64,000 nucleotides of DNA from Nitrospirota bacterium (GTDB lineage Bacteria > Nitrospirota > Thermodesulfovibrionia > Thermodesulfovibrionales > Dissulfurispiraceae): the NCBI GenBank assembly GCA_021791055.1, contig JAJYXI010000051.1:1653-65652 (forward strand), given 5' to 3'. Position numbers and translations under genes: made by a program. Shown here one piece after another: positions 600 through 59,181 of the stretch. Numbering within the stretch: position 1 is the first letter of the stretch; every line of letters begins with the position of its first letter. Under the pieces are notes generated by a model, which saw only the letters and a list, made by a program, of their open reading frames with translations, had not been told where the DNA came from and made no database searches.

Positions 600-1565
600 C
601 CTGTCGCTTCTCTTTGCCAATATCTGCTTTGCCTTCTCTATGTCTTTTCTTATATTTTCTTCAAGCTCGCTGATGCCTGAGAATTTCTTTTCATCCCTTA
701 TCCTGTCGATAAAATGTATCTTTATCTTTTCTCCAAGCAGATTTTTGTCGAAATTAAAGATATGCACTTCATAGCTCATAGGCACATCGCCGAATGTGGG
801 GTTTTTCCCTATATTAGCAACTCCATCGTAAATTTCACATTCTTTCCTCCTGCCTATAGCCTCTTGCCTATTGCCTATTGATACTTTTACAGCATAAACA
901 CCTTCCTTTGGGACAAGTTCATTGGGAGTAGTAATATTTGCAGTCGGCGTATGCAGTAGTGATGCCCCTCTGCCGGCACCTTTTATTACCGTGCCTCCTA
1001 TATGATAAGCCCTGCCGAGCATCCTTGATGCCTCACACACCCTTCCCCTTAAAAGAAGGCTCCGCACCCTGCTGCTGCTCACTATATCATCATATACCTT
1101 TGCATATCTGACAACACTCACGTCGAATCCGTATTTCTTTCCTCTCCTTCTAAGCAGTGCGGTAGTGCCTTTCTTGCCCTTTCCAAAGGCGTAGTTATGA
1201 CCGACGATTACCCACTTAACGCCCAGTTTATTAACAAGTATGTCCCTAACGAAGTCATCGGGGTCTGTCTTTGCAAACTCCTTACTGAAGCCGATGCATA
1301 TGAGAACTTTTATGCCCTCACTTGATATGAGATTTGCCTTGTCTTCAAAGGTTGTGAGTATCTTTAATCCCCTTTCAGGGGCGAGGACACGCACAGGATG
1401 GGGGTCGAATGTTATTGCTATGGGAGTGCCGTTAATTTTCCGTGCCTTTTCCACAACCTTTTTGAATATCTTCTGATGGCCGATGTGAACGCCATCAAAA
1501 TTTCCGATGGTAACAACAGGATTGGGATAATCAAATTTGCCATGCAATTCTCTAATTATTCTCAT
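588..1565 (-). CDS. ribF: Bifunctional riboflavin kinase / FMN adenylyltransferase
   Basis: GNFDGVHIGHQKIF nucleotidyltransferase motif and a C-terminal riboflavin-kinase domain. Carries an in-frame heptamer insert (GNRQEAIGRR). Confidence 0.9.
   Translation of the reverse strand: MRIIRELHGKFDYPNPVVTIGNFDGVHIGHQKIFKKVVEKARKINGTPIAITFDPHPVRVLAPERGLKILTTFEDKANLISSEGIKVLICIGFSKEFAKTDPDDFVRDILVNKLGVKWVIVGHNYAFGKGKKGTTALLRRRGKKYGFDVSVVRYAKVYDDIVSSSRVRSLLLRGRVCEASRMLGRAYHIGGTVIKGAGRGASLLHTPTANITTPNELVPKEGVYAVKVSIGNRQEAIGRRKECEIYDGVANIGKNPTFGDVPMSYEVHIFNFDKNLLGEKIKIHFIDRIRDEKKFSGISELEENIRKDIEKAKQILAKRSDRLYL
851..880. repeat. Tandem heptamers (TGCCTAT type, 4 units) in frame in ribF
   Basis: tgcctat agcctct tgcctat tgcctat. 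The 25 nt at 856-880 are identical to murD 53512-53536. Confidence 0.85.
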
Positions 1566-2137
1566 AACCTGCTGTAAATTTCCTCTACCTGCCTTCTTGT
1601 ATCCTCGAGGTCTTTACTGTTGTCTATTGCAAAATCAGACTTGCTAATCTTCATTTCTATGGGAAACTGGCTTTTCAGTCTTTTCCTTGCATCATCTTCG
1701 GATATTCCTTTCTCCTTAAGGCGGTTGATGGCAATCTCCTCCGATGTATATACAGTTATTATTTTATCAAACCTGTTCTGATAACCCCTTTCGAATATTA
1801 CAGGCGCCTCCACTATAACAATGGCAGCGGAATCTGTTATTTTAGCAATTTCTTCGTCAACTTTTTTGAAAACCCTTGGGTGCAAGATATTTTCGAGGGA
1901 AATTCTGAGATGGGGATGTTCGAAGACAATTTCAGCAAGCATCCTCTTATTTATCTCATCACCTTCCACAATATCCTCTCCGAATGCCTTTTTTATCTCA
2001 TAAATCACTGCAGGATCTTTAAGTAGTTCCCGAACTATATCGTCTGTATCAATAATGATAGCTCCCAACTCCTTAAACAACCGGGCCACAGTGCTCTTAC
2101 CCATTCCATAATTTCCTGTTAAACCGCCAACTATCAT
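1562..2137 (-). CDS. coaE: Dephospho-CoA kinase
   Basis: P-loop GLTGNYGMGKST, typical length of about 190 aa, and a 4-nt overlap with ribF. Confidence 0.9.
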   Translation of the reverse strand: MIVGGLTGNYGMGKSTVARLFKELGAIIIDTDDIVRELLKDPAVIYEIKKAFGEDIVEGDEINKRMLAEIVFEHPHLRISLENILHPRVFKKVDEEIAKITDSAAIVIVEAPVIFERGYQNRFDKIITVYTSEEIAINRLKEKGISEDDARKRLKSQFPIEMKISKSDFAIDNSKDLEDTRRQVEEIYSRL

Positions 2138-2180
2138 AACAAGTCACCGCATGCATATTTATTTAAACCCAATTGTGCAT

Positions 2181-2227
2181 TTGTAAAGCTTTTTATCGTA
2201 TGCATACCGACGGTAAATGCATTAGTT
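2181..2227. repeat. About 47-nt intergenic repeat with two ATGCAT-centred palindromes, copy 1 (mutS stop / coaE upstream)
   Basis: 39 of 47 nt are identical to 17040-17086. Contains GTATGCATAC and AAATGCATTA; on the minus strand it reads AAAAAGCTTTACAAA (-35-like). Confidence 0.75.
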
Positions 2228-2228
2228 A

Positions 2229-4844
2229 TCATAATGACCCCTCTGCCTTTTTCCTCAACTCCAAAAGCTTCTTCAAAGCCTTCTGCGGCGTGAGGGTTTC
2301 CATATCGATATTTAACAATTCCCGTGTAATTGGGTCTCCGGCAAAGAAAAGATCCATCTGTGAAGCGCGGGGCATTAATGTGCTTGATTCCCTTTTTTCG
2401 AGTTTATCTAAAACAGTCTTTGCACCTTCTATAACCTTATCAGGCAGACCTGCAAGCCTTGCAACCTGAATTCCGTAGCTCTTGTCAGCAGACCCCTTCT
2501 CAATCTTTCTCAGGAATATAACTTCATCGCCCCATTCTTTGACAACCACATTGTAATTCTTGACGCCATCTATTGTTAAAGAAATGTCCGTGAGCTCATT
2601 ATAATGCGTTGCAAACAGCGTTCTGGCTTTAATATTGCCTGCAAGATACTCTGCAACTGCCCATGCAATGCTGATGCCGTCAAAGGTGCTTGTCCCCCTG
2701 CCCACCTCATCTAAAAGAATCAAACTTTTTTCGGTTGCATTATTCAAAATATTTGCTGTTTCTATCATCTCAACCATGAATGTGCTCTGTCCCTTTGTGA
2801 TGTAATCCGATGCGCCTATCCTCGTGAATATCCTGTCAACAATCCCTATCCTTGCGCTCTCGGCAGGTACAAAAGAGCCTATCTGAGCCATAAGCACAAT
2901 CAATGCCGTCTGTCGCATATAAGTGGATTTCCCCGCCATATTGGGGCCTGTGATGATCAAAAGCCTGTTTTCATTGCAATCAATATGCGCACTGTTGGGT
3001 ATGAATTTCTCGTCAAGACTCCCGACTCCTGACTCCTGACTCCTGACTCCAAAGAGCCTTTCGATAACGGGATGCCTTCCATCAATTATCTCGATTGCAT
3101 CATCTTCAGCAGTGATAGGCTTTACATAATCATACCTCTTGGCGACAGTTGCCAGAGACAATAGAAAATCGATCATTGCTATCTGTGCCGATGCATCGAG
3201 GAGCTGATTTGTGTATTTCTGCATCTTTTCGAGTATGCTCATGTATATCTCGTATTCGAGCTCCTTAAGCCTGTCTTCTGCACCAAGCACCTTTGTTTCG
3301 TATTCCTTCAAATCCGGAGTGATAAACCTCTCGCAGTTTGCAAGGGTCTGCTTTCTTATGTAATCATCCGGCACGAGATGCCCGCTCTTTAGAAGATTCG
3401 GCTTTGTGACCTCTATGTAATATCCGAATACTTTATTGAAGCCAACCTTTAAGGATGATATGCCTGTCCTCTGCCTCTCTTCCGACTCAAGCCTCGCTAT
3501 AAAATCCTTGCCGCTTGATGAGATACCCCTCAACTCATCAACTTCCTTGCTGAAACCCTTTCTGATTATCCCTCCATCCTTCGGATTAACAGGCGGATTT
3601 TCAACAATGCTGAAGTCTATAAGGTCTTTTAAATCGTGGAATTCAGGGATGTTACTTCCAATCTCATTGATATATGAATTTACCGATGACAGCAGGAGCT
3701 TCTTTATTCTCGGCAGATGCTCGACAGAGTTTTTCAGGGCAATCAAATCCCTCGGGCTTGCGGATTTGGAGATAACCCTTGATGCAAGCCTCTCGATGTC
3801 CTGTATCCTTCTGAATGTCGTTCTCAACTCCTCTGTTAGTCCGTAATCTTCGATTATTGCCTCAACAGCATCCTGCCTTTTTATTATCTCATGAGATGAA
3901 AGCAACGGCTTCGTTATGGCATTTCTCATAAACCTGCCGCCCATCGGCGTAAGGGTCTCGTCCAGAACCCATAGCAGAGAGCCCTCGATAGAACTATTAT
4001 GATATTCGGCCTTTAGATTGTGCAGAAGTTCGAGGTTCCTCTTTGTTGTTGAATCAAGGAACATATACGATGTCTGATTTAAAACAGCAATTTTTTTGAA
4101 GGTCAGTATTTTCTGGGAATCTTCAAGATAGCTTATGAGCGCACCTGCCGCTGAAATGGCAGCATTCATGCCGCTGCAGCCGTATCCGTCAAGGGATGAT
4201 ACCTTAAAATATCTCAGAAGCATCTTATACGACTCTGCGTAATCGAAATACCAGTCATCATAATAAGATATATAGAAGCCTCTAAATGCCTCCTGATAAT
4301 GAAGGTTATCCTCCATGCTTTTAGGACAGAGTATTTCTCTAGGTTCATGCCTGCTTATCTCGTCCTCTATGGGTTTATCTGTCTCATAAACAATAAATTC
4401 GCCTGTCGAGAGATCAGCCACTGTTATACCATTCAGATGCTGATAAGGGAATATGCTCATGATGTATGCGTTTTCCTTGGGCTGTTCAGGGATGTGCGTT
4501 CCGGGAGTTATGACCTTCACAACCTCCCTCTGGATTATTCCTTTTTCTGGACCTTTGTCCAGCTTAGGGTCTTCGACTTGCTCGCATATAGCAACCTTAT
4601 GTCCTGCCTTGATGAGCTTTGAAATATAGCCATCTATAGAGAAGTATGGAACACCGCACATGGGCATGGGGTCATCCTTGCTTTTGTCCCTGCTCGTAAG
4701 GGCTATCTGCAATATATTAGACGCTCTCTTTGCATCCTCGCCGAACATCTCATAGAAATCTCCGAGCCTGAAAAGCACAATGGCATCATGATATTTTTCC
4801 TTAATGCTGAAATACTGCTTCATCAAAGGGGTAAGTTCAGACAC
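2229..4844 (-). CDS. mutS: DNA mismatch repair protein MutS
   Basis: 871 aa. N-terminal TPLMKQY..GDFYE mismatch-binding motif, Walker A GPNMAGKST and DEVGRGTST. In-frame heptamer insert (GVRSQESGVGS). Confidence 0.97.
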   Translation of the reverse strand: MSELTPLMKQYFSIKEKYHDAIVLFRLGDFYEMFGEDAKRASNILQIALTSRDKSKDDPMPMCGVPYFSIDGYISKLIKAGHKVAICEQVEDPKLDKGPEKGIIQREVVKVITPGTHIPEQPKENAYIMSIFPYQHLNGITVADLSTGEFIVYETDKPIEDEISRHEPREILCPKSMEDNLHYQEAFRGFYISYYDDWYFDYAESYKMLLRYFKVSSLDGYGCSGMNAAISAAGALISYLEDSQKILTFKKIAVLNQTSYMFLDSTTKRNLELLHNLKAEYHNSSIEGSLLWVLDETLTPMGGRFMRNAITKPLLSSHEIIKRQDAVEAIIEDYGLTEELRTTFRRIQDIERLASRVISKSASPRDLIALKNSVEHLPRIKKLLLSSVNSYINEIGSNIPEFHDLKDLIDFSIVENPPVNPKDGGIIRKGFSKEVDELRGISSSGKDFIARLESEERQRTGISSLKVGFNKVFGYYIEVTKPNLLKSGHLVPDDYIRKQTLANCERFITPDLKEYETKVLGAEDRLKELEYEIYMSILEKMQKYTNQLLDASAQIAMIDFLLSLATVAKRYDYVKPITAEDDAIEIIDGRHPVIERLFGVRSQESGVGSLDEKFIPNSAHIDCNENRLLIITGPNMAGKSTYMRQTALIVLMAQIGSFVPAESARIGIVDRIFTRIGASDYITKGQSTFMVEMIETANILNNATEKSLILLDEVGRGTSTFDGISIAWAVAEYLAGNIKARTLFATHYNELTDISLTIDGVKNYNVVVKEWGDEVIFLRKIEKGSADKSYGIQVARLAGLPDKVIEGAKTVLDKLEKRESSTLMPRASQMDLFFAGDPITRELLNIDMETLTPQKALKKLLELRKKAEGSL
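3017..3050. repeat. Tandem heptamers (GACTCCT, about 5 units) in frame in mutS
   Basis: gactccc gactcct gactcct gactcct gactcc. Confidence 0.9.
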
Positions 4845-4884
4845 GCTTTAACCTCTCAGCTAAAATTTATAACTTGCAATTATA

Positions 4885-5924: not shown

Positions 5925-5938
5925 AAATTCCCCCTATT

Positions 5939-18143: not shown

Positions 18144-19439
18144 ATGAAAAAGGTAGTTATTACAGGTATTGGTGCAGTTACACCGCTATCAGATAATTTT
18201 CCTGATTCTTGGTCTCTTGTAAAAAAAGGTGTTTCAGGAATAGACAGGATTACAAAGTTCGATGTCTTGGGCTCGCCTTGGAAAATGGCAGGAGAAGTTA
18301 AGAAGTTCAAACCTGAGTTGTATTTATCCAAAAAGGAGATTCTGCGGCTCGACCCTTTTGTGCAGTATGCAGTCGCATCGGCAATGATGGCTGCTGAAAA
18401 TGCGGGACTGGTAAAACAGAGGTCAGAAGTCAGAAGTCAGAAGTCAGCACCCCCCCAGCCCCCCCTTACCAAGGGGGGGATTAGAGGGGGGGTTATAATA
18501 GGGTCAAGCAGGGGAGGAATAACTACAATAGAAAAAGAACTGCAAAAATTATACGGTTCGCGGTTCACGGTTCACGGTTCACGGATTTCGCCCTATCTTA
18601 TGCCGTCTACCACTATCAGCATGGCTGCATCTTATGCGGCGCAGAAATTAGGCATCAAGGGTCATTGTTTAGGCATCTCCAATGCATGTGCATCCGGGAC
18701 AAATGCCATTGGAGAGGCGTACAGACTGATAAGGCATGGCTATGCAGACATAATTATAGCAGGCGGAGCTGAAGCGCCAGTGTGCAGGCTATGCGTAGAA
18801 GGATACGGCATTTCGGGTGCATTATCAAAAACAGATAATCCATCTGCAAGCAAACCTTTTGACAGGAAAAGAGATAGCTTTGTCATTGCTGAAGGAGCCT
18901 GTGTCTTGGTGCTTGAAGGATATGAATCTGCATTAAAGAGAAATGCTACAATCTATGCCGAAATAATTGGTTACAGCAACACAACAGACGCCTTTCATAT
19001 AACAAGGCCTGATATTGAAGGTGAGGTGATAGCAATACGCACCGCACTTGAAGATGCAGGGATATCACCAACAGATGTTGATTATATCAATGCACATGGA
19101 ACATCTACGCCAATTGGGGATAAGACAGAGGCAGAGGCAATAAAAGGGGTCTTCAAAAATAGCGTATCACGAATACCTGCCAAAATTCCTGTCACTTCAA
19201 TAAAATCAATGACAGGACACATGCTTGCGGCATCAGGCGCATTCGAAACAGCATGCACTGCAGTGAGTATTAAAGAAGGCATTATACCTCCGACAATTAA
19301 TGTTACAGAAAAAGACCCTGAGTGTGACATTAATATTGTGACGGAAAAAAGAAATGCTGACATCAGAATTGCCATAACTAACTCATTTGGATTTGGAGGG
19401 GTAAATGCGGTGATAGTTCTGAAAAAGATAATGGAGTGA
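18144..19439 (+). CDS. fabF: Beta-ketoacyl-ACP synthase II-like
   Basis: Active-site ACASGTNAIG, HGTSTPIGD and GHMLAASG. About 20 extra residues come from two in-frame repeat inserts. Confidence 0.9.
   Translation: MKKVVITGIGAVTPLSDNFPDSWSLVKKGVSGIDRITKFDVLGSPWKMAGEVKKFKPELYLSKKEILRLDPFVQYAVASAMMAAENAGLVKQRSEVRSQKSAPPQPPLTKGGIRGGVIIGSSRGGITTIEKELQKLYGSRFTVHGSRISPYLMPSTTISMAASYAAQKLGIKGHCLGISNACASGTNAIGEAYRLIRHGYADIIIAGGAEAPVCRLCVEGYGISGALSKTDNPSASKPFDRKRDSFVIAEGACVLVLEGYESALKRNATIYAEIIGYSNTTDAFHITRPDIEGEVIAIRTALEDAGISPTDVDYINAHGTSTPIGDKTEAEAIKGVFKNSVSRIPAKIPVTSIKSMTGHMLAASGAFETACTAVSIKEGIIPPTINVTEKDPECDINIVTEKRNADIRIAITNSFGFGGVNAVIVLKKIME
18422..18447. repeat. Tandem heptamers (GTCAGAA, 3.7 units) in frame in fabF
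   Basis: gtcagaa gtcagaa gtcagaa gtcag. Confidence 0.9.
18450..18492. repeat. Nested C-run/G-run palindromic element in frame in fabF
   Basis: C7-AG-C7-TTACCAA-G7-ATTAGA-G7, translated as PPQPPLTKGGIRGG. Confidence 0.85.
18554..18584. repeat. Tandem heptamers (CGGTTCA, about 4 units) in frame in fabF
   Basis: cggttcg cggttca cggttca cggttca cgg. This is the reverse complement of the murF array. Confidence 0.9.
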
Positions 19440-19508
19440 TGGAGTATTGAAAAGACTAAAAAGATTGAGAATTAAAAGGCCATTATTCCAACACTCCATT
19501 ACTCCATT
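19430..19508. terminator. Long hairpin formed by inverted octamer arrays between the convergent fabF and GNAT-1 genes; possible bidirectional terminator
   Basis: AATGGAGTGATGGAGTATTG (19430-19449) matches the reverse complement of CAACACTCCATTACTCCATT (19489-19508) at 18 of 20 positions, with a 39-nt loop. Both stop codons lie inside the arms. Confidence 0.5.
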
Positions 19509-19523
19509 ACTCCATTACTCCAC
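19489..19523. repeat. Octamer tandem array (ACTCCATT, about 4 units) containing the GNAT-1 stop codon
   Basis: caacactcc attactcc attactcc attactcc ac. Confidence 0.85.
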
Positions 19524-46754: not shown

Positions 46755-46955
46755 ATGCATAAAAAGTCGCTACTTCAGACCAACCCTTATTTGAAAGATC
46801 CTGAAAAGCGCCGGCAAATAATCGAGACTGTTGTGCGTTCTTCCTCATCCATCGAGGGCGTCCATGTTGCTGCCGAGGAAGCGCTTCTAAAAATTTCCAA
46901 AACACGCACCACTATTTCGCCAGCGTCCGTCTCGTTCTCGAAAGCACAGCGCTGA
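46755..46955 (+). CDS. Small ORF (66 aa) carrying an S-x-x-x-E-G motif (Fic-inhibitory-helix-like)
   Basis: ...VVRSSSSIEGVHV... TATAAT lies 6 nt upstream of the ATG and there is no SD. Its 3' end overlaps the Fic ORF by 44 nt on the opposite strand. Confidence 0.3.
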   Translation: MHKKSLLQTNPYLKDPEKRRQIIETVVRSSSSIEGVHVAAEEALLKISKTRTTISPASVSFSKAQR

Positions 46956-47432
46956 ATACTCTTTTCATCGGTTCATAGTCCTTATTTGCACTCGCTTGAA
47001 CAGCGGCAAAATATGATTTTCTCATTTTGCCACGAATTCCTGTAAAATCAAGGCCCGGCAGCCCTGCCTGTAATGCCATTAATACAGCAAGCAATCTTCC
47101 GACCCTTCCATTCCCTTCTCTGAAAGGATGAATCAACATCAATTCTGCATGGACTACGGATAGTGCGGTTATGATTTCTTCATCTTTAGCGAACAGACAG
47201 GGTACCCTTCCCCGCGAGCCGGGCTCAAACTGGTCTTCAATTAAATGTGATGTCTTATAACGGCCTGATTTTTTCAATCTCCCTGCCCTCTGCCCAGCTC
47301 ACCTCTACAAGCTCTATCTAATAATGAATGGAGATTGACAACTCTTAAACCATCTTCAAAAATAATTTCCTCGACATCAGCCTTAAAGTTATACAACAAA
47401 GCAGCGCTGTAATGTTCAATATGTATTGACAT
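46912..47432 (-). pseudogene. Fic-domain gene split into a 52-aa N-terminal ORF (47274-47432) and a 121-aa ORF (46912-47277)
   Basis: HPFREGNGRVGR Fic motif in the distal ORF, which has only about 60 aa before the motif. The junction ...GGAGATTGAAAAAATCAGG has a TGA/TTG overlap next to an A6 run. Confidence 0.45.
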
Positions 47433-48488: not shown

Positions 48489-48520
48489 AAACTCCATTAC
48501 TCCATCACTCCAACACTCCT
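48489..48520. repeat. Octamer tandem array (ACTCCAxx, 4 units) spanning the murC stop and the murB SD
   Basis: aaactcc attactcc atcactcc aacactcc. The minus strand reads GGAGTGTT GGAGTGAT GGAGTAAT GGAGTTTA ttc ATG. Confidence 0.85.
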
Positions 48521-49923: not shown

Positions 49924-51057
49924 TTACTTTTTCATCAGACTCATTGCCAAATCCACAATCCTCTCTGCTGCATCCATCCTGCCAAAGGCAGCAGCCTTCT
50001 GCATCTCTTTCCTTGCCTTTTCATCAGCGTAAAGCTCTCTTATGGCATCCGCCAAAACTTCGCCTTTCAATTCCCTGTCAAGAATCATCCTTGCAGCACC
50101 CATGTCTTCCAGCTTTCTTGCATTAAACTCCTGATGGTTTGACGCTGCATGGGGAAATGGTATTAATATGGCGGGTTTCCCTATGGCTGTAATCTCCGAC
50201 AGGGTTGTTGCACCTGCCCTGCAAACCACAATATCAGCTACGGTATACGCCTCTGCCATCTGGTATATAAACGGCACTACAATGCCGTTAAATCCAAGCC
50301 TCCTGTATGCATTCTTTACCTTCTCATAATCAGTCTCCCCTGTCTGATGGAGAAACTGAATATTTTGCCTTAAATCCAGAAGGTAATTCAATGCCTCTAA
50401 TATGGAACTGTTTATGCTTCTCGCCCCTGAACTGCCGCCGAAAACAAATACGGTGAATTTGCCCTTCTCGATGGGGAATAATGAGAAAGACCTCTTCTCA
50501 TCCCTTTGCAGTATCTGCCTTCTTATAGGATTTCCTGTGAGATAAGCCCTGTCTTTTGGGAAAAATGAGATGCTTTCCTGATAGGTCAGGGCGATTGCAT
50601 CCACAAATTTCCCGAGGAATTTATTCGCAAATCCGGGAACAGAGTTCTGCTCAAGTATTATTGTAGGAATACCCTTCAAATATGCGGTAAGAACCATTCC
50701 GACCGATGCATAACCGCCAACGCCGATTACCGCATCAGGCCTGACGGATTTGAGGATTCTGTAAGAGCCATGTATAGAAAGGATAAAGGAAAAGAGCGCC
50801 CTGATTTTTTTAAATAATGATTTTCCGACGAATCCCTCTGCCTTTAAAAACCTTATGGGATAGCCCTCTCTGGGAATGACACGAGCCTCTATTCCGTGCT
50901 CTGTACCAATAAAGACTATGTCAGTTTTTTGTATTCTGTCTTTTGACTCCTGACCCCTGACTCCTGACTCCCGACTCCTGTTAAGGAACTCCTCTGCTAC
51001 TGCAATACCCGGATAAAGGTGACCCCCCGTTCCTCCGCCTGCAATTATTATTTTCAT
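49924..51057 (-). CDS. murG: Undecaprenyl-PP-MurNAc-pentapeptide GlcNAc transferase
   Basis: AGGGTGGHLYPGIAVA. In-frame heptamer insert (SRESGVRGQESKD). Confidence 0.95.
   Translation of the reverse strand: MKIIIAGGGTGGHLYPGIAVAEEFLNRSRESGVRGQESKDRIQKTDIVFIGTEHGIEARVIPREGYPIRFLKAEGFVGKSLFKKIRALFSFILSIHGSYRILKSVRPDAVIGVGGYASVGMVLTAYLKGIPTIILEQNSVPGFANKFLGKFVDAIALTYQESISFFPKDRAYLTGNPIRRQILQRDEKRSFSLFPIEKGKFTVFVFGGSSGARSINSSILEALNYLLDLRQNIQFLHQTGETDYEKVKNAYRRLGFNGIVVPFIYQMAEAYTVADIVVCRAGATTLSEITAIGKPAILIPFPHAASNHQEFNARKLEDMGAARMILDRELKGEVLADAIRELYADEKARKEMQKAAAFGRMDAAERIVDLAMSLMKK
50945..50979. repeat. Tandem heptamers (GACTCCT, 5 units) in frame in murG
   Basis: gactcct gacccct gactcct gactccc gactcct. 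Same unit as the mutS array. Confidence 0.9.
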
Positions 51058-51093: not shown

Positions 51094-52362
51094 CTATATC
51101 CTTCTCATTTTACTATATCTTCTATATCCCTGTCCCCTCTGCCATCGCGGGTGTTGATTAACAGACAGTTGATAGCGGGTACGGGCAGGCCTTAGAACCG
51201 TCACATCAGCGGCCGGATTGTTCGTGGTATGCATTCTGTGTTCTGTTTCGTCTTTGGCGGACTGTGTTTTAGAGACATTCAACAGTAGTCCTATGGCTGT
51301 CATGCTCACAAGAAGGGATGAGCCTCCGTAGCTGATAAACGGCAGGGGAAGACCCTTTGTTGGCACCATCCCTGTAACAACGGCAAAATTTATGACAGCC
51401 TGAATAGCTATCATCATGGATATTCCAAAGGCGAGATAATACGAGAAAGCATCTGATGTCCTTCTTGCAATGGCAATGCCTTTAAGAAAAAGAATAAAGA
51501 ATAAAAAGACAACGAAGACCACGCCTATGAATCCAAGCTCCTCGCCGATCAATGAAAAAATAAAGTCCGTATGCACCTCTGGCAGAAATGAGAGCTTCTG
51601 TTTTCCTTCTCCGAGTCCCACTCCGCTAATGCCTCCGCTTCCAAGGGCTATGAATGACTGGACAAGCTGGAATCCGCTTCCCTGCGCATCCTTCCAAGGA
51701 TCGAGAAATGCCGCAACCCTTTTCCATCTGTAAGGCTCTGTTATCAGCTTGACGATAACAGGTATTGCGACAACACCCAGCGACAGTATATAGCGAAGTC
51801 TTATGCCCGATAAGAATAGCAACGCCATTGTAATGAGACCAAGGCTCATAAAAGCACCAAAGTCAGGCTGTTTTAAGAATACAACCTGAAATATGCCCAT
51901 AACGCCTACAGGAATCATAAACGACAAAAACCTGTCTTTCTTATAGCTCGAAAGGCTCATGTACCATGAAAGGAATATAACCATGCACAGCTTTACAAGC
52001 TCCGAAGGCTGAAAAGTGGACGGCCAGATTCTTATCCATCTCCTTGCGCCTCCTGCAGTGACTCCAAATTTTGTGAAAACCATCAGCAGACAGACAAGCG
52101 ATATTGCAAGGAGCGGTATGGACAGTTTTTTCAAATATTTTAGAGGCACTTTATATGCGATAAACATAGCAATTATGCCCAATAACACAGTGAACAACTG
52201 CTTCCTAAGGAAACCGAACTGGCTTATCGCCACCCCTTTTTTACGGTACTTTTCGACCATGTCGGGAGAGATTACCGAGGTGGAGCTGTAAACAGCCATC
52301 AGCCCTACGAGTATAAGCAGAAGAACGATGAGTAGTATCCATCTGTCATACTGCTGCTTCAT
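51094..52362 (-). CDS. ftsW: FtsW (SEDS-family) peptidoglycan polymerase
   Basis: 10-TM FtsW/RodA/SpoVE pattern (PSE..K, TDFIFS, GLPLPFISYGGSS), plus a basic C-terminal tail of about 50 aa. Confidence 0.9.
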   Translation of the reverse strand: MKQQYDRWILLIVLLLILVGLMAVYSSTSVISPDMVEKYRKKGVAISQFGFLRKQLFTVLLGIIAMFIAYKVPLKYLKKLSIPLLAISLVCLLMVFTKFGVTAGGARRWIRIWPSTFQPSELVKLCMVIFLSWYMSLSSYKKDRFLSFMIPVGVMGIFQVVFLKQPDFGAFMSLGLITMALLFLSGIRLRYILSLGVVAIPVIVKLITEPYRWKRVAAFLDPWKDAQGSGFQLVQSFIALGSGGISGVGLGEGKQKLSFLPEVHTDFIFSLIGEELGFIGVVFVVFLFFILFLKGIAIARRTSDAFSYYLAFGISMMIAIQAVINFAVVTGMVPTKGLPLPFISYGGSSLLVSMTAIGLLLNVSKTQSAKDETEHRMHTTNNPAADVTVLRPARTRYQLSVNQHPRWQRGQGYRRYSKMRRI

Positions 52363-53858
52363 AGCTCCATCACCGCCTTTTTAAACTGTCTGCCCCTGTC
52401 CTCGAAATCCCTGAACATATCAAAACTCGCACAGGCAGGAGAAAGCAGAACCACATCGCCATGTGAAGCTGCCTGTTTGGCCTTCAATACGGCAGCCCTG
52501 AAATCATCTTCCATAAAAACCTCTTTAGCCGCCTCTCCAACTGCTCTTTTTATTTTGTCCTTTGCTTCTCCGATAAGAATAAGGGACTTGACCTTTTCTT
52601 TGATAAGTGGCCTTAAAACCGAGAAGTCGCTGTCCTTATCCCTGCCGCCTGCGATAAGTATCACAGGCTCACTGAAACTCTCAAGGGACTTTATAACAGC
52701 CCCTACATTCGTTCCCTTGGAGTCGTTGATAAACTTCACTCCATCTACCTCGCGCACAAACTCAAGCCTGTGTTCAAGCCCCGGAAATGTCTTCAGCGTA
52801 TCAATTACAGCATCCGCATTACATCCTGACAGCAGCGCCATTAAAGATGATGCCATAGCATTTTCGATATTGTGAACGCCCTTTATTCTGAAGTCAGGAG
52901 TCAGAAGTCGGAAGTCAGAAGAAAAATTTTGAATTTTGAATTTTAGATTTTGAATTTTAGATTCAGGCAGATTGAATCTTATAACATTATCCTGAAGATA
53001 AGCGCCCTCAACTTCTCTCTTCCTGCTGAAATAGAAAATTTCTGGTATTCTTTTGACTCTTGACTCTTGACTCTTGACTCTTTGCATTATATCTTCAGTT
53101 GCTGGGTCATCTGCATTTAACACCAGAAAGTCGCCAGCCCCCTGATTTAAAAATATCCTGCATTTCGCATCTATATAATCGGACATCGAAGAATATCTGT
53201 CGAGATGGTCGGGTGTGATATTCAATATAGCCGCACCTTTCGGCCTGAATCTATCGATGGATTCAAGCTGGAAGCTCGACACCTCGGCAACTATATAATC
53301 AATATTTGATTTGTCTTCTGATTTCAGAATCTCCTCTGTCAGCGCATTGCCTATGTTGCCGCCAAGGAGGGTATTAAACCTGCCATTTTTCAGCATTTCA
53401 TAAAGCAGCATAGTAGTTGTTGATTTTCCATTAGTCCCTGTTACAGCAAGAAAAGACGGGCGATGGACAATAGGCGATAGGCGATAAGAAGAAATCTCTT
53501 GCTTACTACCCATAGCCTCTTGCCTATTGCCTATTGCCTCTACTATTTGATACGCCAGCTCCAGTTCACCGATTATCTTTATCCCCTTTTCTGCTGCAGC
53601 CTTCAAAGGAGGAATATTTAATGGCACTCCAGGGCTTACAATAATGAGGTCGGTTTTTTCGAATAACTCTTTAGGATGATTTCCGAGTTCAAGTCTAATG
53701 TCAGGGCTAAGTTTTTCTATGAAGGCTTTAAGTGACCGGGAATCCTTCTTATCTGTTACTGTGACAATGGCACCGAGTTTAGAGAGCAGATTGGCTGCGC
53801 CAACTCCGCTTCTTGCAAGACCGACAATAGTAACCTTTTTACCTTTCAAGTCTATCAA
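52359..53858 (-). CDS. murD: UDP-N-acetylmuramoylalanine--D-glutamate ligase
   Basis: VTIVGLARSG and GTNGKSTT. 499 aa, with four repeat-derived insert blocks. Confidence 0.93.
   Translation of the reverse strand: MIDLKGKKVTIVGLARSGVGAANLLSKLGAIVTVTDKKDSRSLKAFIEKLSPDIRLELGNHPKELFEKTDLIIVSPGVPLNIPPLKAAAEKGIKIIGELELAYQIVEAIGNRQEAMGSKQEISSYRLSPIVHRPSFLAVTGTNGKSTTTMLLYEMLKNGRFNTLLGGNIGNALTEEILKSEDKSNIDYIVAEVSSFQLESIDRFRPKGAAILNITPDHLDRYSSMSDYIDAKCRIFLNQGAGDFLVLNADDPATEDIMQRVKSQESRVKRIPEIFYFSRKREVEGAYLQDNVIRFNLPESKIQNLKFKIQNFSSDFRLLTPDFRIKGVHNIENAMASSLMALLSGCNADAVIDTLKTFPGLEHRLEFVREVDGVKFINDSKGTNVGAVIKSLESFSEPVILIAGGRDKDSDFSVLRPLIKEKVKSLILIGEAKDKIKRAVGEAAKEVFMEDDFRAAVLKAKQAASHGDVVLLSPACASFDMFRDFEDRGRQFKKAVMEL
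52893..52920. repeat. Tandem heptamers (GTCAGAA/GTCAGGA, 4 units) in frame in murD
   Basis: gtcagga gtcagaa gtcggaa gtcagaa. Same unit and same plus-strand orientation as the fabF array, although murD is on the other strand. Confidence 0.9.
52927..52963. repeat. Tandem heptamers (TTTTGAA/TTTTAGA, about 5 units) in frame in murD
   Basis: ttttgaa ttttgaa ttttaga ttttgaa ttttaga tt. Confidence 0.9.
53054..53081. repeat. Tandem heptamers (TGACTCT, 4 units) in frame in murD
   Basis: tgactct x4. Confidence 0.9.
53468..53540. repeat. About 73-nt insert in murD made of two inverted heptamer arrays (hairpin-forming)
   Basis: The left arm caataggcgataggcgat matches the reverse complement of the right arm (caataggcaataggcaag) at 16 of 18 positions. 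The right arm shares a 25-mer with ribF. Confidence 0.8.
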
Positions 53859-53903: not shown

Positions 53904-55019
53904 TCAAGATTTACTCATAGGTTCCTGTCTCTGCACGGAAAGCCCCGAAGATTTTTTTGCTTTCTTCTTGGTGACTTTAACATGAGAACTCTTTTTATTT
54001 GCCTTCTTGGCTATCTTGTGAGTTTTATTCTTATGTTTCTTTGCGATTGCATGGGCCTTTCGTGCGTTTTTATGTTTTGCGCTCTTATATCTTTTTTCGG
54101 CTTTATAAGATGCAAAAACCACAGGCCTTTCATCCACACTGCTGAAATAAATCATCGGCTCCGCCCTCTGGGTTAAGACATCATAGCCTTTTGCCAAAAG
54201 CACTGTAGAGTCATCCCAGAGATTGTCCCTCGCAGACTCGCCTAAGACAGCGGCTATCAATGTATTTTGCCCCTTTTTTGCAGCGCATACAAAGCAGTGC
54301 CTCGCCGCTCTTGTATAGCCGGTCTTTCCTCCAAGATTGTCGTCATCGGTCCACAGGAGCTGATTTGTATTTTTGATAAATATACGCCTTCCTCTCTCTG
54401 AAAAAATCTCCTTTGCCCTTGTATTGATTATCTCACGAATTAAGGGATACCTCAGGGATTCTTTCATCACCTTGGCAAGGTCAAAGGCTGTTATATACTG
54501 GTCATGCCCGGGAAGTCCCGAGGCGTTTATAAATCTTGTATTTTCTGCGCCTATACGGCTTGCCTTATCATTCATCATCTCCACAAATGCATCTTCGGAC
54601 CCTGCAGTTGCTTCTGCGAGTGCAACTGCAGCGCTGTTTACAGACCTTATGAGGGCAAGGTCCAAAAGATCTCTAACGCTGTATTTTTCTCCTGCCCTTA
54701 GACGAGGACTCACCGATGGCGTGTTTGCCGCATTCTCGCTGATTGTGACAGCAGAATCGGGATTAATCCTGTCCAGAGCAACCATAGCTGTAATAAGCTT
54801 TGTAGTGCTTGCAGGAGGCAGTTTCAGGTTAGGATTTTTTGCATAGAGTATCTTTTCGCTTGCACTGTCTACCACAACTGCAGCCCTTGCAGAAATTTCA
54901 TCGGCATAAGCAATTAATAGTGAACAGTGGATAGCAAATAGTAAAAAAATAGGGATAAACAGTAATCTTTTCCATATCTTGACTGGCGACTGACGACTGA
55001 TGACTGATGACTGTTTCAT
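53904..55019 (-). CDS. D-alanyl-D-alanine carboxypeptidase (S11, PBP5/6-like) with a polybasic C-terminal tail
   Basis: SxxK (ASTTK), SxN (SVNSAA), KTG (KTGYT) and a Lys-rich tail KHKNARKAHAIAKKHKNKTHKIAKKANKK. Confidence 0.85.
   Translation of the reverse strand: MKQSSVISRQSPVKIWKRLLFIPIFLLFAIHCSLLIAYADEISARAAVVVDSASEKILYAKNPNLKLPPASTTKLITAMVALDRINPDSAVTISENAANTPSVSPRLRAGEKYSVRDLLDLALIRSVNSAAVALAEATAGSEDAFVEMMNDKASRIGAENTRFINASGLPGHDQYITAFDLAKVMKESLRYPLIREIINTRAKEIFSERGRRIFIKNTNQLLWTDDDNLGGKTGYTRAARHCFVCAAKKGQNTLIAAVLGESARDNLWDDSTVLLAKGYDVLTQRAEPMIYFSSVDERPVVFASYKAEKRYKSAKHKNARKAHAIAKKHKNKTHKIAKKANKKSSHVKVTKKKAKKSSGLSVQRQEPMSKS
54981..55015. repeat. Tandem heptamers (GACTGxx, 5 units) in codons 2-13 of the D,D-carboxypeptidase gene
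   Basis: gactggc gactgac gactgat gactgat gactgtt. Confidence 0.85.
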
Positions 55020-55023
55020 ATTT

Positions 55024-56106: not shown

Positions 56107-56110
56107 GGTG

Positions 56111-57529
56111 TCAGCCTCTATGCTGTCCCGCAAAGTCCACCGACTTTTTGGAACCATCTTCTTCTATTGCAGCCATTACCTTCTCCATCCTCATTCCCCT
56201 CGAACCCTTTATCAAAACAATGTCACCGTCTTCGATTATCTTGCTCAACTCAATGCCTGCATCCTCCGATGTATCAGCACAAATCCCTTTACCTCTGAAT
56301 TCAGAGACAGCAAGCGCCATGAGCGGACCTACACCTATAAAAACATCAACAGCCATATCAGACAGCTTTTTGCCCAGTTTTTTATGGCCGGCAATACCGT
56401 AGTCGCCAAGCTCCAGCATATCTCCCAGTACCGCAATTGCCCTCTTATATTTCCCTGTATATTTTCCTGCATCGGCAAACCGCGCCAGTTCATTTATCGA
56501 TTCTTCCATGGATGACGGATTTGCATTATATACATCATTCAGGAATGTCACGCCTTTTTCCCGCCTTACCTCAAACCTCATATTGACACCCGTAAAAGAC
56601 TCAAGCCCTTTCTTGATTTCATACAGATTAAACCCAATCGCATGTGCAGCAGAGGCTGCAGCAAGGGAGTTGTATACATTGAAGCGGCCCGGTATTTTTG
56701 AATCTATATCAATACATCCACTATTTGCGCATATAATGAATCTTGTGCCGTCATCAGAAAAATCAATATCCTTAACAGTCAGATCTGCATCCTTCGCTTC
56801 GATGCCGAAGGTTATAACATCTCCTTTAAACTTTGCATTAACACCTTCCATAAGAAATGAGTCATCTGCATTCACAACAAGCTTCTTCGCATAAGGAGCT
56901 ATTTCAAGCTCCGAGTCCCTGACTTTATGCAGAGAGCCAAACCCCTGAAGGTGCTCATAGCCTATATTTGTAACGACGCCGACATCAGGCATCGCGATGT
57001 TGCACAGTTCATCTATGTCGCCGGGCCTGTTTGTCCCCATCTCAAGGACCATGACCCCGGTATCTTTATCCATCTTGGTAATCGAAAGCGGCATCCCTAT
57101 GTGATTGTTAAGGTTCCCCATTGTTTTAAGGACATTCATCCTGGTACCGAGGATTGATGAAATAAGCTCCTTTGTTGTTGTCTTGCCATTGCTTCCAACC
57201 ACGCCGATTACATGCCCATTAAAGCTTTTCCTTATATATCTTCCTAAATCATGCAAGGCAAGCAGTGTGTTGTCCACAAGGATTATAGTCCTGTCCGTGA
57301 ACCGTGAACCGTGAACCGTGAACCGTGAACTGTTTACAATAGCGCCCTTTCCTGTTTTCAAGGCGTCTGACAGAAAATCATGACCGTCGAATCTGTCTCC
57401 ATTCAATGCAATAAACAGTTCGCCGCTTTTTATCGTCCTTGAGTCTATTGATACGCCTGTAAATTCGCTCTCTCCCTCTGAAACAAGCCTGCCTCGCGTT
57501 GCCTCAATTATATCCCTGATATTCAGCAT
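56111..57529 (-). CDS. murF: UDP-MurNAc-tripeptide--D-Ala-D-Ala ligase
   Basis: GVVGSNGKTTTKE. In-frame heptamer insert (SRFTVHGSRFTDR). Confidence 0.93.
   Translation of the reverse strand: MLNIRDIIEATRGRLVSEGESEFTGVSIDSRTIKSGELFIALNGDRFDGHDFLSDALKTGKGAIVNSSRFTVHGSRFTDRTIILVDNTLLALHDLGRYIRKSFNGHVIGVVGSNGKTTTKELISSILGTRMNVLKTMGNLNNHIGMPLSITKMDKDTGVMVLEMGTNRPGDIDELCNIAMPDVGVVTNIGYEHLQGFGSLHKVRDSELEIAPYAKKLVVNADDSFLMEGVNAKFKGDVITFGIEAKDADLTVKDIDFSDDGTRFIICANSGCIDIDSKIPGRFNVYNSLAAASAAHAIGFNLYEIKKGLESFTGVNMRFEVRREKGVTFLNDVYNANPSSMEESINELARFADAGKYTGKYKRAIAVLGDMLELGDYGIAGHKKLGKKLSDMAVDVFIGVGPLMALAVSEFRGKGICADTSEDAGIELSKIIEDGDIVLIKGSRGMRMEKVMAAIEEDGSKKSVDFAGQHRG
57295..57329. repeat. Tandem heptamers (CCGTGAA, 5 units) in frame in murF
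   Basis: ccgtgaa x5. Confidence 0.9.
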
Positions 57530-59181
57530 CTAATATTCTCGGTACCCTTGTAATCGGTTCCTCCTCCAAATGAGGGTCTGCCGATGGATCTTCTGATTGC
57601 ATTCTCAAGAGCAGTCCTGTCGCTGAAATCATAACGCCTTCCCTGAATCTCCTGATAAGCCTCATGCCCTTTGCCTGAGATCAGCACTATATCTCCTGAC
57701 GATGCAAGCTCCACGGCCATGCTGATTGCAACACTCCTGTCAGGAATAACAATATAATTGTCTCCCTCTATACCTTTCTCTATATCCCTTATAATGCCCC
57801 TTGGACTTTCGTTTCTCGGATTGTCGGATGTTATTATCACAAAGTCGCTTAGCTTTGCCGCAATCTCTCCCATCTTTGAGCGCTTGCCTCTGTCCCTGTT
57901 TCCTCCGCAGCCGAAAACAGTAATAATCTTTCCAACCTCTCTCTCTTCGGATATGGAATACTCCTGTCTTTTTGTCTTCAGCATCTTTTCTGTTTTCTCT
58001 GCAAAACGGTAAGCCTCCAACAATTGACGGGCAGTCATCAGAAGCCTCTCAAGGGCATCCTCTGTGTGGGCGTAATCCACAACAGCAAGAAAGTCCTGTC
58101 CAATATCAACCTTTTCAAACCTTCCCTTGACTAATCCTGTCATGGCAATTCCCTCCTTTATTATCTTAATCGGTATATTTAAAGACAATGCTGCACATAT
58201 GGAAGAAAGTATGTTATATACATTTGTTACACCGACAAGGGGAGACCCGAATAGCTCAGAGTTCAGGGTTTGGAGTTCTGAGCTTTTAGTTTGAAGCCTA
58301 AATGATGTCCCCTTAAATGTCGTTTTAATATCAAAAGCGGTTATATCCGCATCTCTGTTATTTATTGCATATGTCAATATCTTCATGCCTCTCCCTTCCA
58401 AGTCATTCACAAGCCTTTCGCCATAAGGGTCATCGGCATTAATAACAGCAGCGCCGTTTTCTTCCAAAAGCTCTGTGAAAAGCCTCTCCTTTGCCATGAA
58501 ATAGTCTTCCATTGTCTGATGAAAATCCAGATGGTCTCTTGTAAGGTTTGTAAAGATCGCCACTTTAAACTTAGTGTAATCCACCCTTTTCTGTGAGAGC
58601 GAGTGGGATGATACCTCCGTAACAACATGGCTGCAGCCTGCATCCAGCATCTGTCTCAGCAGCGCCTGAAAATCAGGGGACTCTGGAGTTGTGTGCGGTG
58701 CATCATAGGCTACATCCTTTATCAGATATGTTATTGTCCCTATCAGGCCGACTCCCTTTCCCCATTTTTCGAGGATGGACTTAATCAGATATGATGTTGT
58801 TGTCTTTCCGTTTGTGCCGGTAATACCGATAACAGCAGCTTCTTCGGACGGCCTTCTGTAAAAATTGTGAGAGATGGATGCAACCGCATCCCTGCAATCC
58901 CTGACCCCAATCCATACTATGTCTGGATATGTATTCATGAGCATTGCTGATTGCTGATTGCTGATTGCTGATTGCTCATAAACTATGGCAACTGCGCCTC
59001 TTCTAACTGCATCTTCGATAAAATTATGACCGTCGAAATTTTCTCCCTTTATTGCAACAAACAGGTCTCCGCTTTTAACATCTCTGGAATCGTACTTCAC
59101 CCCGGAGATATTTATTTCGATATCTCCCTTTACATCAAAATCCTTCATCAATATGTCTTTTATCTTCATATCCATCTTCAT
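57523..59181 (-). CDS. murE: UDP-MurNAc-L-Ala-D-Glu--2,6-diaminopimelate ligase
   Basis: GITGTNGKTTT and DNPR motif (SDNPRNE). Two in-frame repeat inserts. Confidence 0.93.
   Translation of the reverse strand: MKMDMKIKDILMKDFDVKGDIEINISGVKYDSRDVKSGDLFVAIKGENFDGHNFIEDAVRRGAVAIVYEQSAISNQQSAMLMNTYPDIVWIGVRDCRDAVASISHNFYRRPSEEAAVIGITGTNGKTTTSYLIKSILEKWGKGVGLIGTITYLIKDVAYDAPHTTPESPDFQALLRQMLDAGCSHVVTEVSSHSLSQKRVDYTKFKVAIFTNLTRDHLDFHQTMEDYFMAKERLFTELLEENGAAVINADDPYGERLVNDLEGRGMKILTYAINNRDADITAFDIKTTFKGTSFRLQTKSSELQTLNSELFGSPLVGVTNVYNILSSICAALSLNIPIKIIKEGIAMTGLVKGRFEKVDIGQDFLAVVDYAHTEDALERLLMTARQLLEAYRFAEKTEKMLKTKRQEYSISEEREVGKIITVFGCGGNRDRGKRSKMGEIAAKLSDFVIITSDNPRNESPRGIIRDIEKGIEGDNYIVIPDRSVAISMAVELASSGDIVLISGKGHEAYQEIQGRRYDFSDRTALENAIRRSIGRPSFGGGTDYKGTENIRC
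58253..58294. repeat. Degenerate heptamer array (AGTTCAG-like, 6 units) in frame in murE
   Basis: agctcag agttcag ggtttgg agttctg agctttt agtttga. Confidence 0.6.
58943..58977. repeat. Tandem heptamers (ATTGCTG, 5 units) in frame in murE
   Basis: attgctg x4 followed by attgctc. Confidence 0.9.

Follow-up and report, generated by a model that had tools for sequence, protein, structure and literature searches.

Tandem heptanucleotide arrays in the reading frames of housekeeping genes in a Nitrospirota clade

Heptanucleotide repeats have been recognised in bacteria since 1990. How do tandem arrays of such a unit, whose length shares no factor with that of a codon, come to lie in frame within the genes of essential enzymes? 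The question is raised by a 64-kb stretch of Nitrospirota contig JAJYXI010000051.1 (the window, meaning the whole stretch that was analysed), for which an earlier reading of the letters alone, here called the original prediction, had reported such arrays in genes for peptidoglycan precursors, mismatch repair and other housekeeping functions. Here we find that the arrays are real, that they are translated and that they occupy surface loops, linkers and termini of the host proteins. We favour, at a probability of roughly 55%, the reading that they are heptanucleotide simple sequence repeats (SSRs) of the kind described as long SSRs (LSSR5-11) or short tandemly repeated repetitive sequences (STRRs), born and resized by slippage and sieved by selection in a gene-dense genome. 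The repeat class itself is already known; the new aspect is its embedding in the coding frame of housekeeping genes.

Results

Period-7 arrays lie inside intact housekeeping genes

Exact self-matches of at least 10 nt at a lag of 7 numbered 12 in the window, whereas 50 second-order Markov simulations averaged 0.08 and never exceeded 1. The same count gave 0 at lags 4–6, 9–11, 13 and 15, 1 at lag 8 and 2 at lag 12. With a mismatch-tolerant score, 15 period-7 arrays were found, and those detected by Tandem Repeats Finder (TRF) have about 3.3–5.3 copies and 76–100% matches. TRF placed arrays at, or within a few bases of, the predicted positions (851, 3017, 18417, 18553, 48185, 50944, 52890, 52925, 53053, 53459, 53496/53515, 54981, 57295 and 58943). 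The array predicted at 58253 proved degenerate only (17 of 26 lag-7 matches, local P = 3e-5) and falls under the TRF threshold, and the proposed maximum of six copies gives way to 5.3 in the window. NCBIfam models identify the hosts as they had been named, namely ribF, mutS, fabF, murB, murG, murD, a PBP5/6-type dac, murF and murE, and every host open reading frame (ORF) is intact. Thus far the original prediction was right about the arrays; it overlooked period-8 arrays, the frame-independence of the encoded heptapeptide, stop repair, inverted pairing and the occurrence of the same units in other phyla. Five of the arrays in the window belong to murD. Coordinates, strand, sense unit and peptide are given below.

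846..880, minus strand: ribF array, AATAGGC, peptide SIGNRQEAIGRR, in-frame TAG changed to GAG
3017..3050, minus strand: mutS array, GGAGTCA x4.9, peptide GVRSQESGVGS
18417..18447, plus strand: fabF array 1, GTCAGAA, peptide QRSEVRSQKS, part of an insert of about 16 aa
18553..18584, plus strand: fabF array 2, GGTTCAC, peptide GSRFTVHGSR, over the native LTKGPRR loop, net gain 4 aa
48185..48211, minus strand: murB array, AACGCTG, peptide LNAERSTLNA, in-frame TGA changed to TCA
50944..50980, minus strand: murG array, GGAGTCA x5.3, peptide RSRESGVRGQES
52890..52921, minus strand: murD site D, second array, CTTCTGA, peptide SSDFRLLTPDF, in-frame TGA changed to CGA
52925..52963, minus strand: murD site D, first array, AAAATTC, peptide KIQNLKFKIQNF
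53053..53082, minus strand: murD site C array, AAGAGTC x4.3, perfect, peptide QRVKSQESRVK
53459..53486, minus strand: murD site A, second array, TATCGCC, peptide YRLSPIVHRP
53496..53541, minus strand: murD site A, first array, AGGCAAT, peptide EAIGNRQEAMGSKQE, TAG changed to GAG, in an inter-domain linker
54981..55013, minus strand: N-terminal array of dac (PBP5/6-type D-Ala-D-Ala carboxypeptidase), CAGTCAT, peptide QSSVISRQSPV
57295..57330, minus strand: murF array, GTTCACG x5.1, perfect, peptide SSRFTVHGSRFTD
58253..58285, minus strand: murE site 2, degenerate period-7 stretch, peptide SSELQTLNSEL, with palindromic ends
58943..58976, minus strand: murE site 1 array, AGCAATC x4.9, perfect, peptide EQSAISNQQSAM

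The statement that every array is coding is true of the window (15 of 15) but carries no statistical weight, because the sequence is 89–98% ORF; the arrays are merely not depleted from genes. Across seven loci of the clade, 59 of 60 arrays lie inside ORFs, which is what a coding density of 94% gives, and coding enrichment is thereby ruled out; the clade genome is about 95% coding. One further candidate in ftsW (51484–51505, AAGAATA x3.3) was not counted, being native T-rich transmembrane sequence whose peptide is kept in all relatives. Readings as CRISPR, diversity-generating retroelement, intein or recoding were dropped: the units are contiguous without spacers, there is no A-biased variation and the frame is kept. 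Rfam and tRNA scans were empty.

The arrays characterise a clade and are stable between strains

The closest MurD relatives, at 70–84% identity, come from metagenome-assembled genomes labelled Nitrospirota, Thermodesulfovibrionales or Dissulfurispiraceae, and MurD of the cultured Dissulfurispira thermophila is 71% identical to that of the window. The clade is a Dissulfurispiraceae-like group of Nitrospirota that cycle sulfur. The division and cell wall (dcw) cluster is syntenic in all of these closest relatives, D. thermophila included. Nine related genomes carry arrays at the same loop sites, among them the finished isolate genome of D. thermophila (AP022873.1), with arrays in murE, murD (two) and murB. 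Densities were as follows.

Window: 12 arrays in 64 kb
Four closest genomes (L001–L004): 27 arrays in 72.7 kb
A more distant member of the Thermodesulfovibrionales (L005, GC 51%): 0 arrays in 18 kb
75 other loci from other phyla: 27 arrays in 1.38 Mb

The seven clade loci together hold their 60 period-7 arrays in 170 kb, with almost none at periods 5, 6 and 8–11. Outgroup Mur proteins lack the array segments and the MutS insert is missing in E. coli, in line with the expectation that unrelated taxa would not share these peptides.

Near-identical MurD and RibF variants were drawn from independent NCBI, ENA, JGI and Logan assemblies. Seven full-length variants of the window MurD cluster (at least 99% identity) all have 499 aa, with array peptides that are residue-identical by alignment; eight RibF variants (at least 99% identity) all have 325 aa, equal length being the only property compared across all eight. 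The copy-number polymorphism that the original prediction had proposed to look for among strains is therefore absent from these seven MurD and eight RibF variants, and its worry over assembly artefacts did not materialise, since independent assemblies agree and a finished isolate genome has arrays. Being identical in at least seven near-identical strains from independent assemblies, the arrays are neither artefacts nor hypervariable or phase-variable at strain level.

Arrays occupy loops, linkers and termini

In alignments with outgroups and PDB homologues, array residues fall at insert or length-hypervariable positions, and the array sites are surface loops, linkers and termini. In MutS the array is a clean 12-aa insert relative to the E. 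coli protein, between HPV(I/V)E (HPVIE here) and FIPN (F-I-x-N) at the start of the ATPase domain; a mismatch-repair gene itself hosts an array at the entry to this domain. The FabF inserts comprise about 16 and 4 residues. Directly after fabF array 1, and within the same insert of about 16 aa, a period-11 repeat (CAGCACCCCCC x1.9, 18445–18465) encodes Pro-rich APPQPPL. The RibF array takes the place of a flexible loop that has the same length in the Corynebacterium enzyme. The proposal that each array adds 7–14 residues does not hold for several arrays, in which native residues are replaced instead: ribF shows no net insertion, and the gain at fabF site 2 is only 4 aa.

The same sites vary widely in length across the clade. 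Among 68 RibF homologues, the loop between EGVYAV[KR]VS and YDGVAN spans 4–60 residues, and many variants are visibly 7-residue-periodic. Among 89 MurD homologues, four sites are length-hypervariable and total length runs from 455 to 531 aa. An AlphaFold2 (AF2) model of the window MurD has a predicted local distance difference test score (pLDDT) of 89.7 overall and 46–79 in the array segments, which form peripheral helix extensions or loops; at site A the score is 76 over residues 111–120 (array peptide) and 46 over residues 121–130, between both arrays. The premise that these enzymes tolerate few indels is wrong at the array positions, because loops, linkers and termini there are length-hypervariable across the family (RibF, MurD) and form a low-confidence periphery in the AF2 model.

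Translation is independent of frame and stops are repaired

Because 7 and 3 have no common factor (gcd(7,3) = 1), a heptamer array yields one heptapeptide, cyclically permuted, in all three frames. Owing to this frame-independence, GGAGTCA encodes ESGVRSQ-type peptides in both mutS and murG. Where the unit bears a stop (AATAGGC, CTTCTGA, AACGCTG), a variant unit stands exactly where the in-frame stop would fall.

AATAGGC in ribF, murD site A and murE of L004: TAG to GAG
AATAGGC at murD site C of L001–L003: TAG to TGG
CTTCTGA at murD site D: TGA to CGA
AACGCTG in murB: TGA to TCA

TRF scores follow the same division: the only 100% perfect arrays are those of the stop-free units GTTCACG, AGCAATC and AAGAGTC, two further stop-free units reach 95–96%, and stop-containing units have 76–90%. 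These repairs are direct evidence that the arrays are translated, as low-complexity peptides in the frame of the host, and that selection keeps that frame open.

Unit families nearly always adopt one orientation relative to the gene, and the favoured orientation gives hydrophilic sense-strand peptides. The suggestion that a unit occurs in both orientations relative to its host survives only for the GTCAGAA/CTTCTGA and AATAGGC/GCCTATC families. It fails for GGTTCAC, which is in sense in both fabF (plus strand) and murF (minus strand): since the two genes lie on opposite strands, the unit and its complement amount to the same gene orientation.

Arrays turn over between species

The site in murG measures 54 nt in L005 and outgroups, 75 nt in L002 and L003, 96 nt in the window and 117 nt in L004, a series of 0, +3, +6 and +9 units of GGAGTCA type in steps of exactly 21 nt. 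This series is the expected footprint of slippage filtered for frame. The argument that only certain copy numbers are allowed therefore stands for murG, whose relatives differ by exactly 21 nt, but not for many other sites, at which differences are not multiples of 21 nt. A rule by which 1.x plus three copies make a 7-aa insert was likewise confined to murG and was abandoned, differences elsewhere being 5, 6, 8, 9, 10 and 12 aa.

Turnover between species is fast, and arrays also decay, drift and are replaced. In murF and at murD site C, one lineage has a perfect array where another has a decayed one; the murF site keeps an equal length in L001–L003, with decay in L002 and L004. Units drift by single substitutions, which then spread along the array, as at site C of the clade locus L204, which reads AAGAGTC, AGGGGTC, AGGAGTC, AGGAGTC. 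Unrelated units occupy one alignment site in different genomes at murD site C, murE site 1, the dac N-terminus and murB. At murD site C, relatives have AATAGGC (L001–L003) or AAAGTTA (L004). At murE site 1, AGCAATC is common to the window and L002, L004 has AGGCAAT, and L001 and L003 share an unrelated 96-nt insert. The degenerate murE site 2 is matched by AAATTCA or AAGGGTC arrays in relatives, and the murB site holds a CAGCAGT array in L002 and L004. The dac array, which directly follows the start codon and is the only one to abut one, differs in unit in every relative.

Across the gene cluster, DNA identity among L001–L003 is 93–97%, and it drops to 0.59–0.82 in the 60-codon windows that hold arrays. 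Such windows locally resemble other lineages: L002 resembles the analysed stretch at murE site 1 (0.87) and L003 does so at murB (0.92). This pattern suggests that short-patch recombination may have exchanged divergent loop alleles. Recombination-like patches centred on arrays, in comparisons of L001–L003 with the window and L004, lie at alignment columns 61–120 of murE, 61–120 of murB, and 61–120 and 181–240 of murD.

Slippage sieved by selection as the favoured reading, and what weighs against it

We infer slippage and template switching as the generator of the arrays, and near-neutrality as their condition. Short arrays would arise and change size through replication slippage, which some local or inverted template switching and short-patch or inter-lineage recombination may assist. 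Because 7 and 3 share no factor and an array spells the same heptapeptide in any frame, an array would be tolerated within a gene under three conditions: a net length change that is a multiple of 3, reached by three-unit steps of 21 nt or by a compensated boundary; seven cyclic codons that are free of stops, or a single in-frame stop repaired by point substitution; and a position in a surface loop, linker or terminus. The arrays would then be passengers and not functional parts of the enzymes.

Several observations sit uneasily with this account. The arrays are clumped, with 11 of 15 in 12 kb of mur genes and none between 20 and 47 kb (P = 0.002). Site lengths differ by 15, 18, 24, 27 and 30 nt, not multiples of 21, and the seven MurD and eight RibF variants show no copy-number polymorphism at strain level, unlike classic slippage-prone SSRs. 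At about 8 of 11 sites, sister genomes whose DNA is 93–97% identical have entirely different arrays between intact flanks. Recurring unit families, a claim of the original prediction that is borne out (AATAGGC, GGAGTCA, GGTTCAC and AAAATTC each at two or more unrelated sites), mean that identical units stand at non-orthologous sites: AATAGGC in ribF, murD and murE, GGAGTCA in mutS and murG, and GGTTCAC in fabF and murF. The ribF and murD site A arrays of the window share about 28 nt, in which both the stop repair and the synonymous GCA>GCT change next to it are found. Units also cross phyla. GGCAATAGGCAATAGGCAANNGGC was found in at least 120 metagenome contigs of 31–73% GC, mostly as perfect arrays outside long ORFs, and MurG of Chryseobacterium/Kaistella has in-frame arrays that include CAATCAG (QSAISNQ), the unit of the window murE. 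Among 37 distinct sense-oriented units, taken from coding arrays of the window, L001–L004 and the clade loci L201–L204, 59% contain TCA against 16% expected (P = 3e-9). Finally, third codon positions match at 0.7–0.85 inside arrays and 0.5–0.6 outside, where amino acids are conserved, an effect that is modest and comes from pairs that are not independent, with arrays flagged in one genome of each pair.

Some of these units have a wider setting. In metagenome contigs L081–L160, (AATAGGC)n arrays reach more than 30 units, a few of them in long ORFs and in either orientation; they often grade into AACAGGC, AAAAGGC, AATGGGC or AATAAGC, or adjoin other heptamer arrays (L102, L132, L138, L155). The arrays in MurG of Chryseobacterium/Kaistella (Flavobacteriia) lie at two sites, the N-terminus and an internal loop (L036 13423–13467; L037 12610–12636; L050 12683–12704 and 13418–13435; L066 13604–13633). 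Many of the units with TCA read TCAG or TCAA plus NNN and resemble TAACTGA of Beggiatoa and MTYCTGA of Geobacter. As a universal signature the TCA core was rejected, being present in only 35% against 22% (P = 0.04, strand-agnostic) of 43 units from cross-phylum contigs. The window has no tandem copies of GGGGA(T/C)T, GGGAATC or the STRR consensus units that Mazel reportedly gave in 1990 (CCCCAGT, TTGGTCA and CAACAGT), and none of these last three rotates into any of the 37 clade units.

Possible copying of arrays between sites

Any of the competing readings that follow, artefact apart, may hold for a subset of the arrays. In one, a sequence-specific copy-and-paste process writes and spreads the arrays and slippage only resizes them afterwards, which we regard as possible, if rather unlikely. 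Candidate agents are ectopic gene conversion or template switching, short-patch recombination with alleles of other lineages, and an enzyme acting on hairpin-forming array pairs. The presence of the same units at unrelated sites within a genome and across phyla argues for such copying, as do the two derived substitutions within the stretch shared by ribF and murD site A, although stop repairs have few solutions and some of this sharing may be convergent. In L002, murD site A has gained a GTCAGCA array that is absent in its sisters, and GTCAGCA also stands in murB of L002, 5 kb off. Arrays are replaced between sister genomes in a cassette-like manner, by short patches like those of other lineages. 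The common TCA core points the same way, yet neighbouring units interconvert by single substitutions, as from AAGAGTC to AGGAGTC at site C of L204, and this can mimic families. Some arrays form inverted pairs with lineage-specific complementary units (murD C/D, murD site A and the dac N-terminus), but most have no inverted partner, and no conserved flanks or target duplications surround arrays of the same family. A gene like those for REP-associated tyrosine transposases (RAYTs, where REP stands for repetitive extragenic palindromic) lies at 20719–21459 and its flanking 21-nt inverted repeats start with AATAGGG, a repeat that has no other copy in the window. The murG series in steps of 21 nt, in turn, is classic slippage.

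A broader version, that a horizontally distributed repeat-writing process installs and exchanges arrays of about 30 nt from a limited vocabulary that includes TCA-core units and AATAGGC, in many cases as inverted pairs able to form hairpins, we judge unlikely. Colonisation of coding sequence would be possible under it because the translation of a heptamer array is independent of frame.

Inverted pairs and a possible function of the nucleotides

A third reading makes the arrays functional cis elements, either protein-binding sites at about 7 nt per monomer or mRNA hairpin arms that tune dcw transcripts, with the peptide as a by-product. Within murD, the CTTCTGA array of site D is the inverted partner of the site C array, and at site A the TATCGCC and AGGCAAT arrays, 8 nt apart, are inverted partners in a predicted hairpin. 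The complementary units at C/D change with lineage: AAGAGTC/CTTCTGA in the window, L203 and L204, and AATAGGC/GCCTATN in L001–L003, with partner z scores up to 12; three different complementary unit pairs occur there in different lineages. The arrays are predicted to pair in RNA, with z = -2.7 for C/D in the window, -5.1 for C/D in L002, -3.9 for site A in the window and -5.6 for an octamer hairpin described below. Synonymous positions in arrays are conserved beyond background. At murD site B, L003 and L201 share an AAATTTC array without a difference in 42 nt, although third positions of their murD genes are near saturation (0.42). A precedent exists in the regulator binding proposed for TAACTGA by MacGregor 2015, with CspB binding as one protein per heptamer (PMC4679880).

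Against this, the unit at a given site varies freely from one sister genome to the next, genes persist when their arrays decay, and no Rfam match was found. D. thermophila has an AATAGRC array at site C and a non-complementary CTGACTT array at D, and complementarity in L004 is weak (71%), which undermines C/D pairing as a conserved RNA stem. Most arrays are unpaired: none of those in mutS, fabF, murB, murG, murF and murE has an inverted partner. Synonymous conservation can stem from concerted evolution, because each base of the unit is read at all three codon positions; concerted evolution, recent recombination and a nucleotide-level function are all possible sources of it. Taken together, we consider the cis-element reading distinctly improbable.

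A possible function of the peptides, and artefact

That selection favours the heptapeptide-periodic segments as parts of the proteins, for instance as helix extensions, flexible linkers or interaction surfaces, appears very unlikely. Its attraction is that MurD homologues with as little as about 62–65% identity still have ISNFKFQISNF, RVKSQESRVK and IGNRQWAIGNR, that AF2 shows MurD sites A and C as extensions of existing helices, and that the MurE and MurF arrays lie at the equivalent loop of their paralogous N-domains. However, unrelated peptides stand at the same site in sister genomes, the same peptides recur in unrelated enzymes, amino-acid identity of about 25–60% inside arrays compares with about 75% over the full protein, the AF2 model has low confidence in the array segments, and outgroups and L005 function without arrays.

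An assembly or sequencing artefact, which mostly metagenome-assembled contigs and the proneness of short tandem repeats to mis-assembly might suggest, is refuted for practical purposes by identical arrays in at least seven MurD and eight RibF (by length) near-identical variants from independent assemblies, by arrays in the finished genome of a cultured isolate, by ORFs kept open through stop-repair substitutions, and by array lengths of 20–56 nt, shorter than reads.

Comparison with known repeat systems

We agree with the original prediction that the STRR and heptamer SSRs of cyanobacteria are the closest known parallel. Heptamers are the commonest long SSR in prokaryotes and have been put down to polymerase slippage (Mrazek, Guo & Shah 2007, as represented in PMC4679880 and PMC4692102). 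Like the LSSR5-11 of that survey, so far as these two papers represent it, the arrays described here are head-to-tail heptamers of few units, far above chance, in free-living non-pathogens; both are put down to a general tendency to expand by slippage and not to a part in phase variation. Within the same compass, the survey's units of lengths not divisible by 3 are mostly outside genes, whereas essentially all of ours are in intact essential genes, are stable between strains, belong to unit families and in some cases form inverted pairs. Of the traits that define LSSR5-11, iteration above chance is present, whole-unit change is seen at murG with more complex change at other sites, and length polymorphism between close strains is absent.

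STRR heptamers occur in Calothrix and Nostoc (Mazel 1990, as cited in PMC4692102), and the Nostoc/Xanthomonas heptamers GGGGA(T/C)T and GGGAATC are intergenic and G-rich, prefer about four units and have been proposed to form G-quadruplexes (Rehm 2015, PMC4692102). Both resemble the present arrays as dispersed tandem heptamers of few families, with about four units and occasional inverted stem-loop pairs. They differ in being intergenic, under-represented in coding sequence and G-rich, and the host here is a member of the Nitrospirota; dispersed families within one genome are common to STRRs and our arrays, a predominantly intergenic location is not (59 of 60 in ORFs).

TAACTGA repeats, for which no mechanism is known, occur in Beggiatoaceae, cyanobacteria and Bacteroidetes (MacGregor 2015, PMC4679880). 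They share with our arrays a range of 2–6 copies, a patchy spread across phyla and a unit of NNNCTGA/TCAGNNN type like many here; PMC4679880 points out that they can be translated in one orientation and that ORFs contain a few of the arrays. That system has one dominant unit, mostly just upstream of start codons, at proposed regulator sites, whereas the present arrays have many units and are embedded in frame in conserved enzymes; TAACTGA tandems are absent from the window. Geobacter metallireducens has GGACCGG x4 in 49 copies and MTYCTGA x5 at 15 sites (Aklujkar 2009, PMC2700814), both inside and between genes (PMC2700814). These too are multicopy elements of four to five tandem heptamers, and the CTYCTGA array of murD (CTTCTGA/CTCCTGA) fits MTYCTGA; they were annotated as putative regulatory RNA or binding sites, and frame, stop repair, turnover and housekeeping hosts were not analysed there. 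Phase-variable heptanucleotide tracts, as in HMW1A of Haemophilus influenzae (PMC8262952, PMC2651432), likewise consist of short tandem units whose copy number shifts by slippage. Those tracts differ among strains and also within one, and turn genes on and off; the arrays here show no strain-level variation, always keep the frame and have cytoplasmic housekeeping hosts.

REPs and bacterial interspersed mosaic elements (BIMEs) with RAYTs also invite comparison. Both include short dispersed hairpin-forming repeats, a RAYT-like gene with inverted repeats is present in the window, and inverted pairs exist among our arrays. A REP is a single imperfect palindrome that lies in intergenic DNA and is associated with a RAYT (Y1) transposase, whereas our arrays are heptamers repeated in tandem within coding sequence, of which a minority form inverted pairs. 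Literature searches returned no in-frame arrays in conserved housekeeping genes, no stop repair, no 21-nt quantisation and no Nitrospirota case, which is not proof of absence.

Other features of the window

A period-8 family, ACTCCATY, accompanies the heptamers.

19432..19522, no strand assigned: ACTCCATY inverted pair around the fabF stop codon and in the intergenic spacer, between convergent genes
48491..48520, no strand assigned: second copy of the ACTCCATY octamer array, at the junction of the murC 3' end and the murB start

The hairpin predicted for the inverted pair, ATGGAGTGATGGAGT ... ACTCCATT x4, has an energy of -28.9 kcal/mol (z = -5.6), and the family also occurs in frame in murE of L004.

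The gene at 20719–21459 encodes a 221-aa Y1 (IS200-like) transposase whose best NCBIfam match, REP-associated tyrosine transposase, is below the cutoff (70.6 < 80). The 21-nt inverted repeat on its flanks, AATAGGGACAGCG[A/C]CC[A/G]TTTA, gives it a RAYT-like architecture, and the first 6 bases of the repeat resemble AATAGGC; the repeat is single in the 64 kb, which speaks against a link to the arrays. Between 7022 and 10219, two adjacent ORFs for TdeIII-type restriction endonucleases and an N6/N4 DNA methylase lie in the lowest-GC stretch of the window (0.36), probably an acquired restriction–modification (R-M) island. D. thermophila has a different R-M pair between murC and murB (L205 15229–17585). 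A 121-aa ORF at 46912–47277, in the gap of about 1 kb between ddl and murB, has a putative Fic motif read by eye (HPFREGNGRVGR), and L204 has toxin–antitoxin genes near the ddl/murB junction; within the dcw cluster, the flanks of murB resemble a hot spot for insertions.

Discussion

Embedded in alignable, universally conserved genes, the arrays can be dated and polarised against outgroups. They amount to a natural experiment in which gain, three-unit steps, stop repair, decay, replacement and inversion are traceable, which is impossible for intergenic repeats. For the organisms, they mean that essential enzymes, MutS included, tolerate the repeated insertion of arbitrary heptapeptide-periodic loops. 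Proteins gain as many as about 50 residues from the low-complexity inserts, which matters for annotation and for structure prediction, and the inserts provide protein engineering with a map of permissive sites in Mur ligases.

Were copying between sites or RNA structure the right reading, the arrays would reveal a new mechanism of repeat generation or a new layer of dcw-operon regulation. If a repeat-writing process is at work, they would represent a coding-compatible class of micro-mobile repeats common to Nitrospirota, Bacteroidota, cyanobacteria, Beggiatoaceae and Geobacter.

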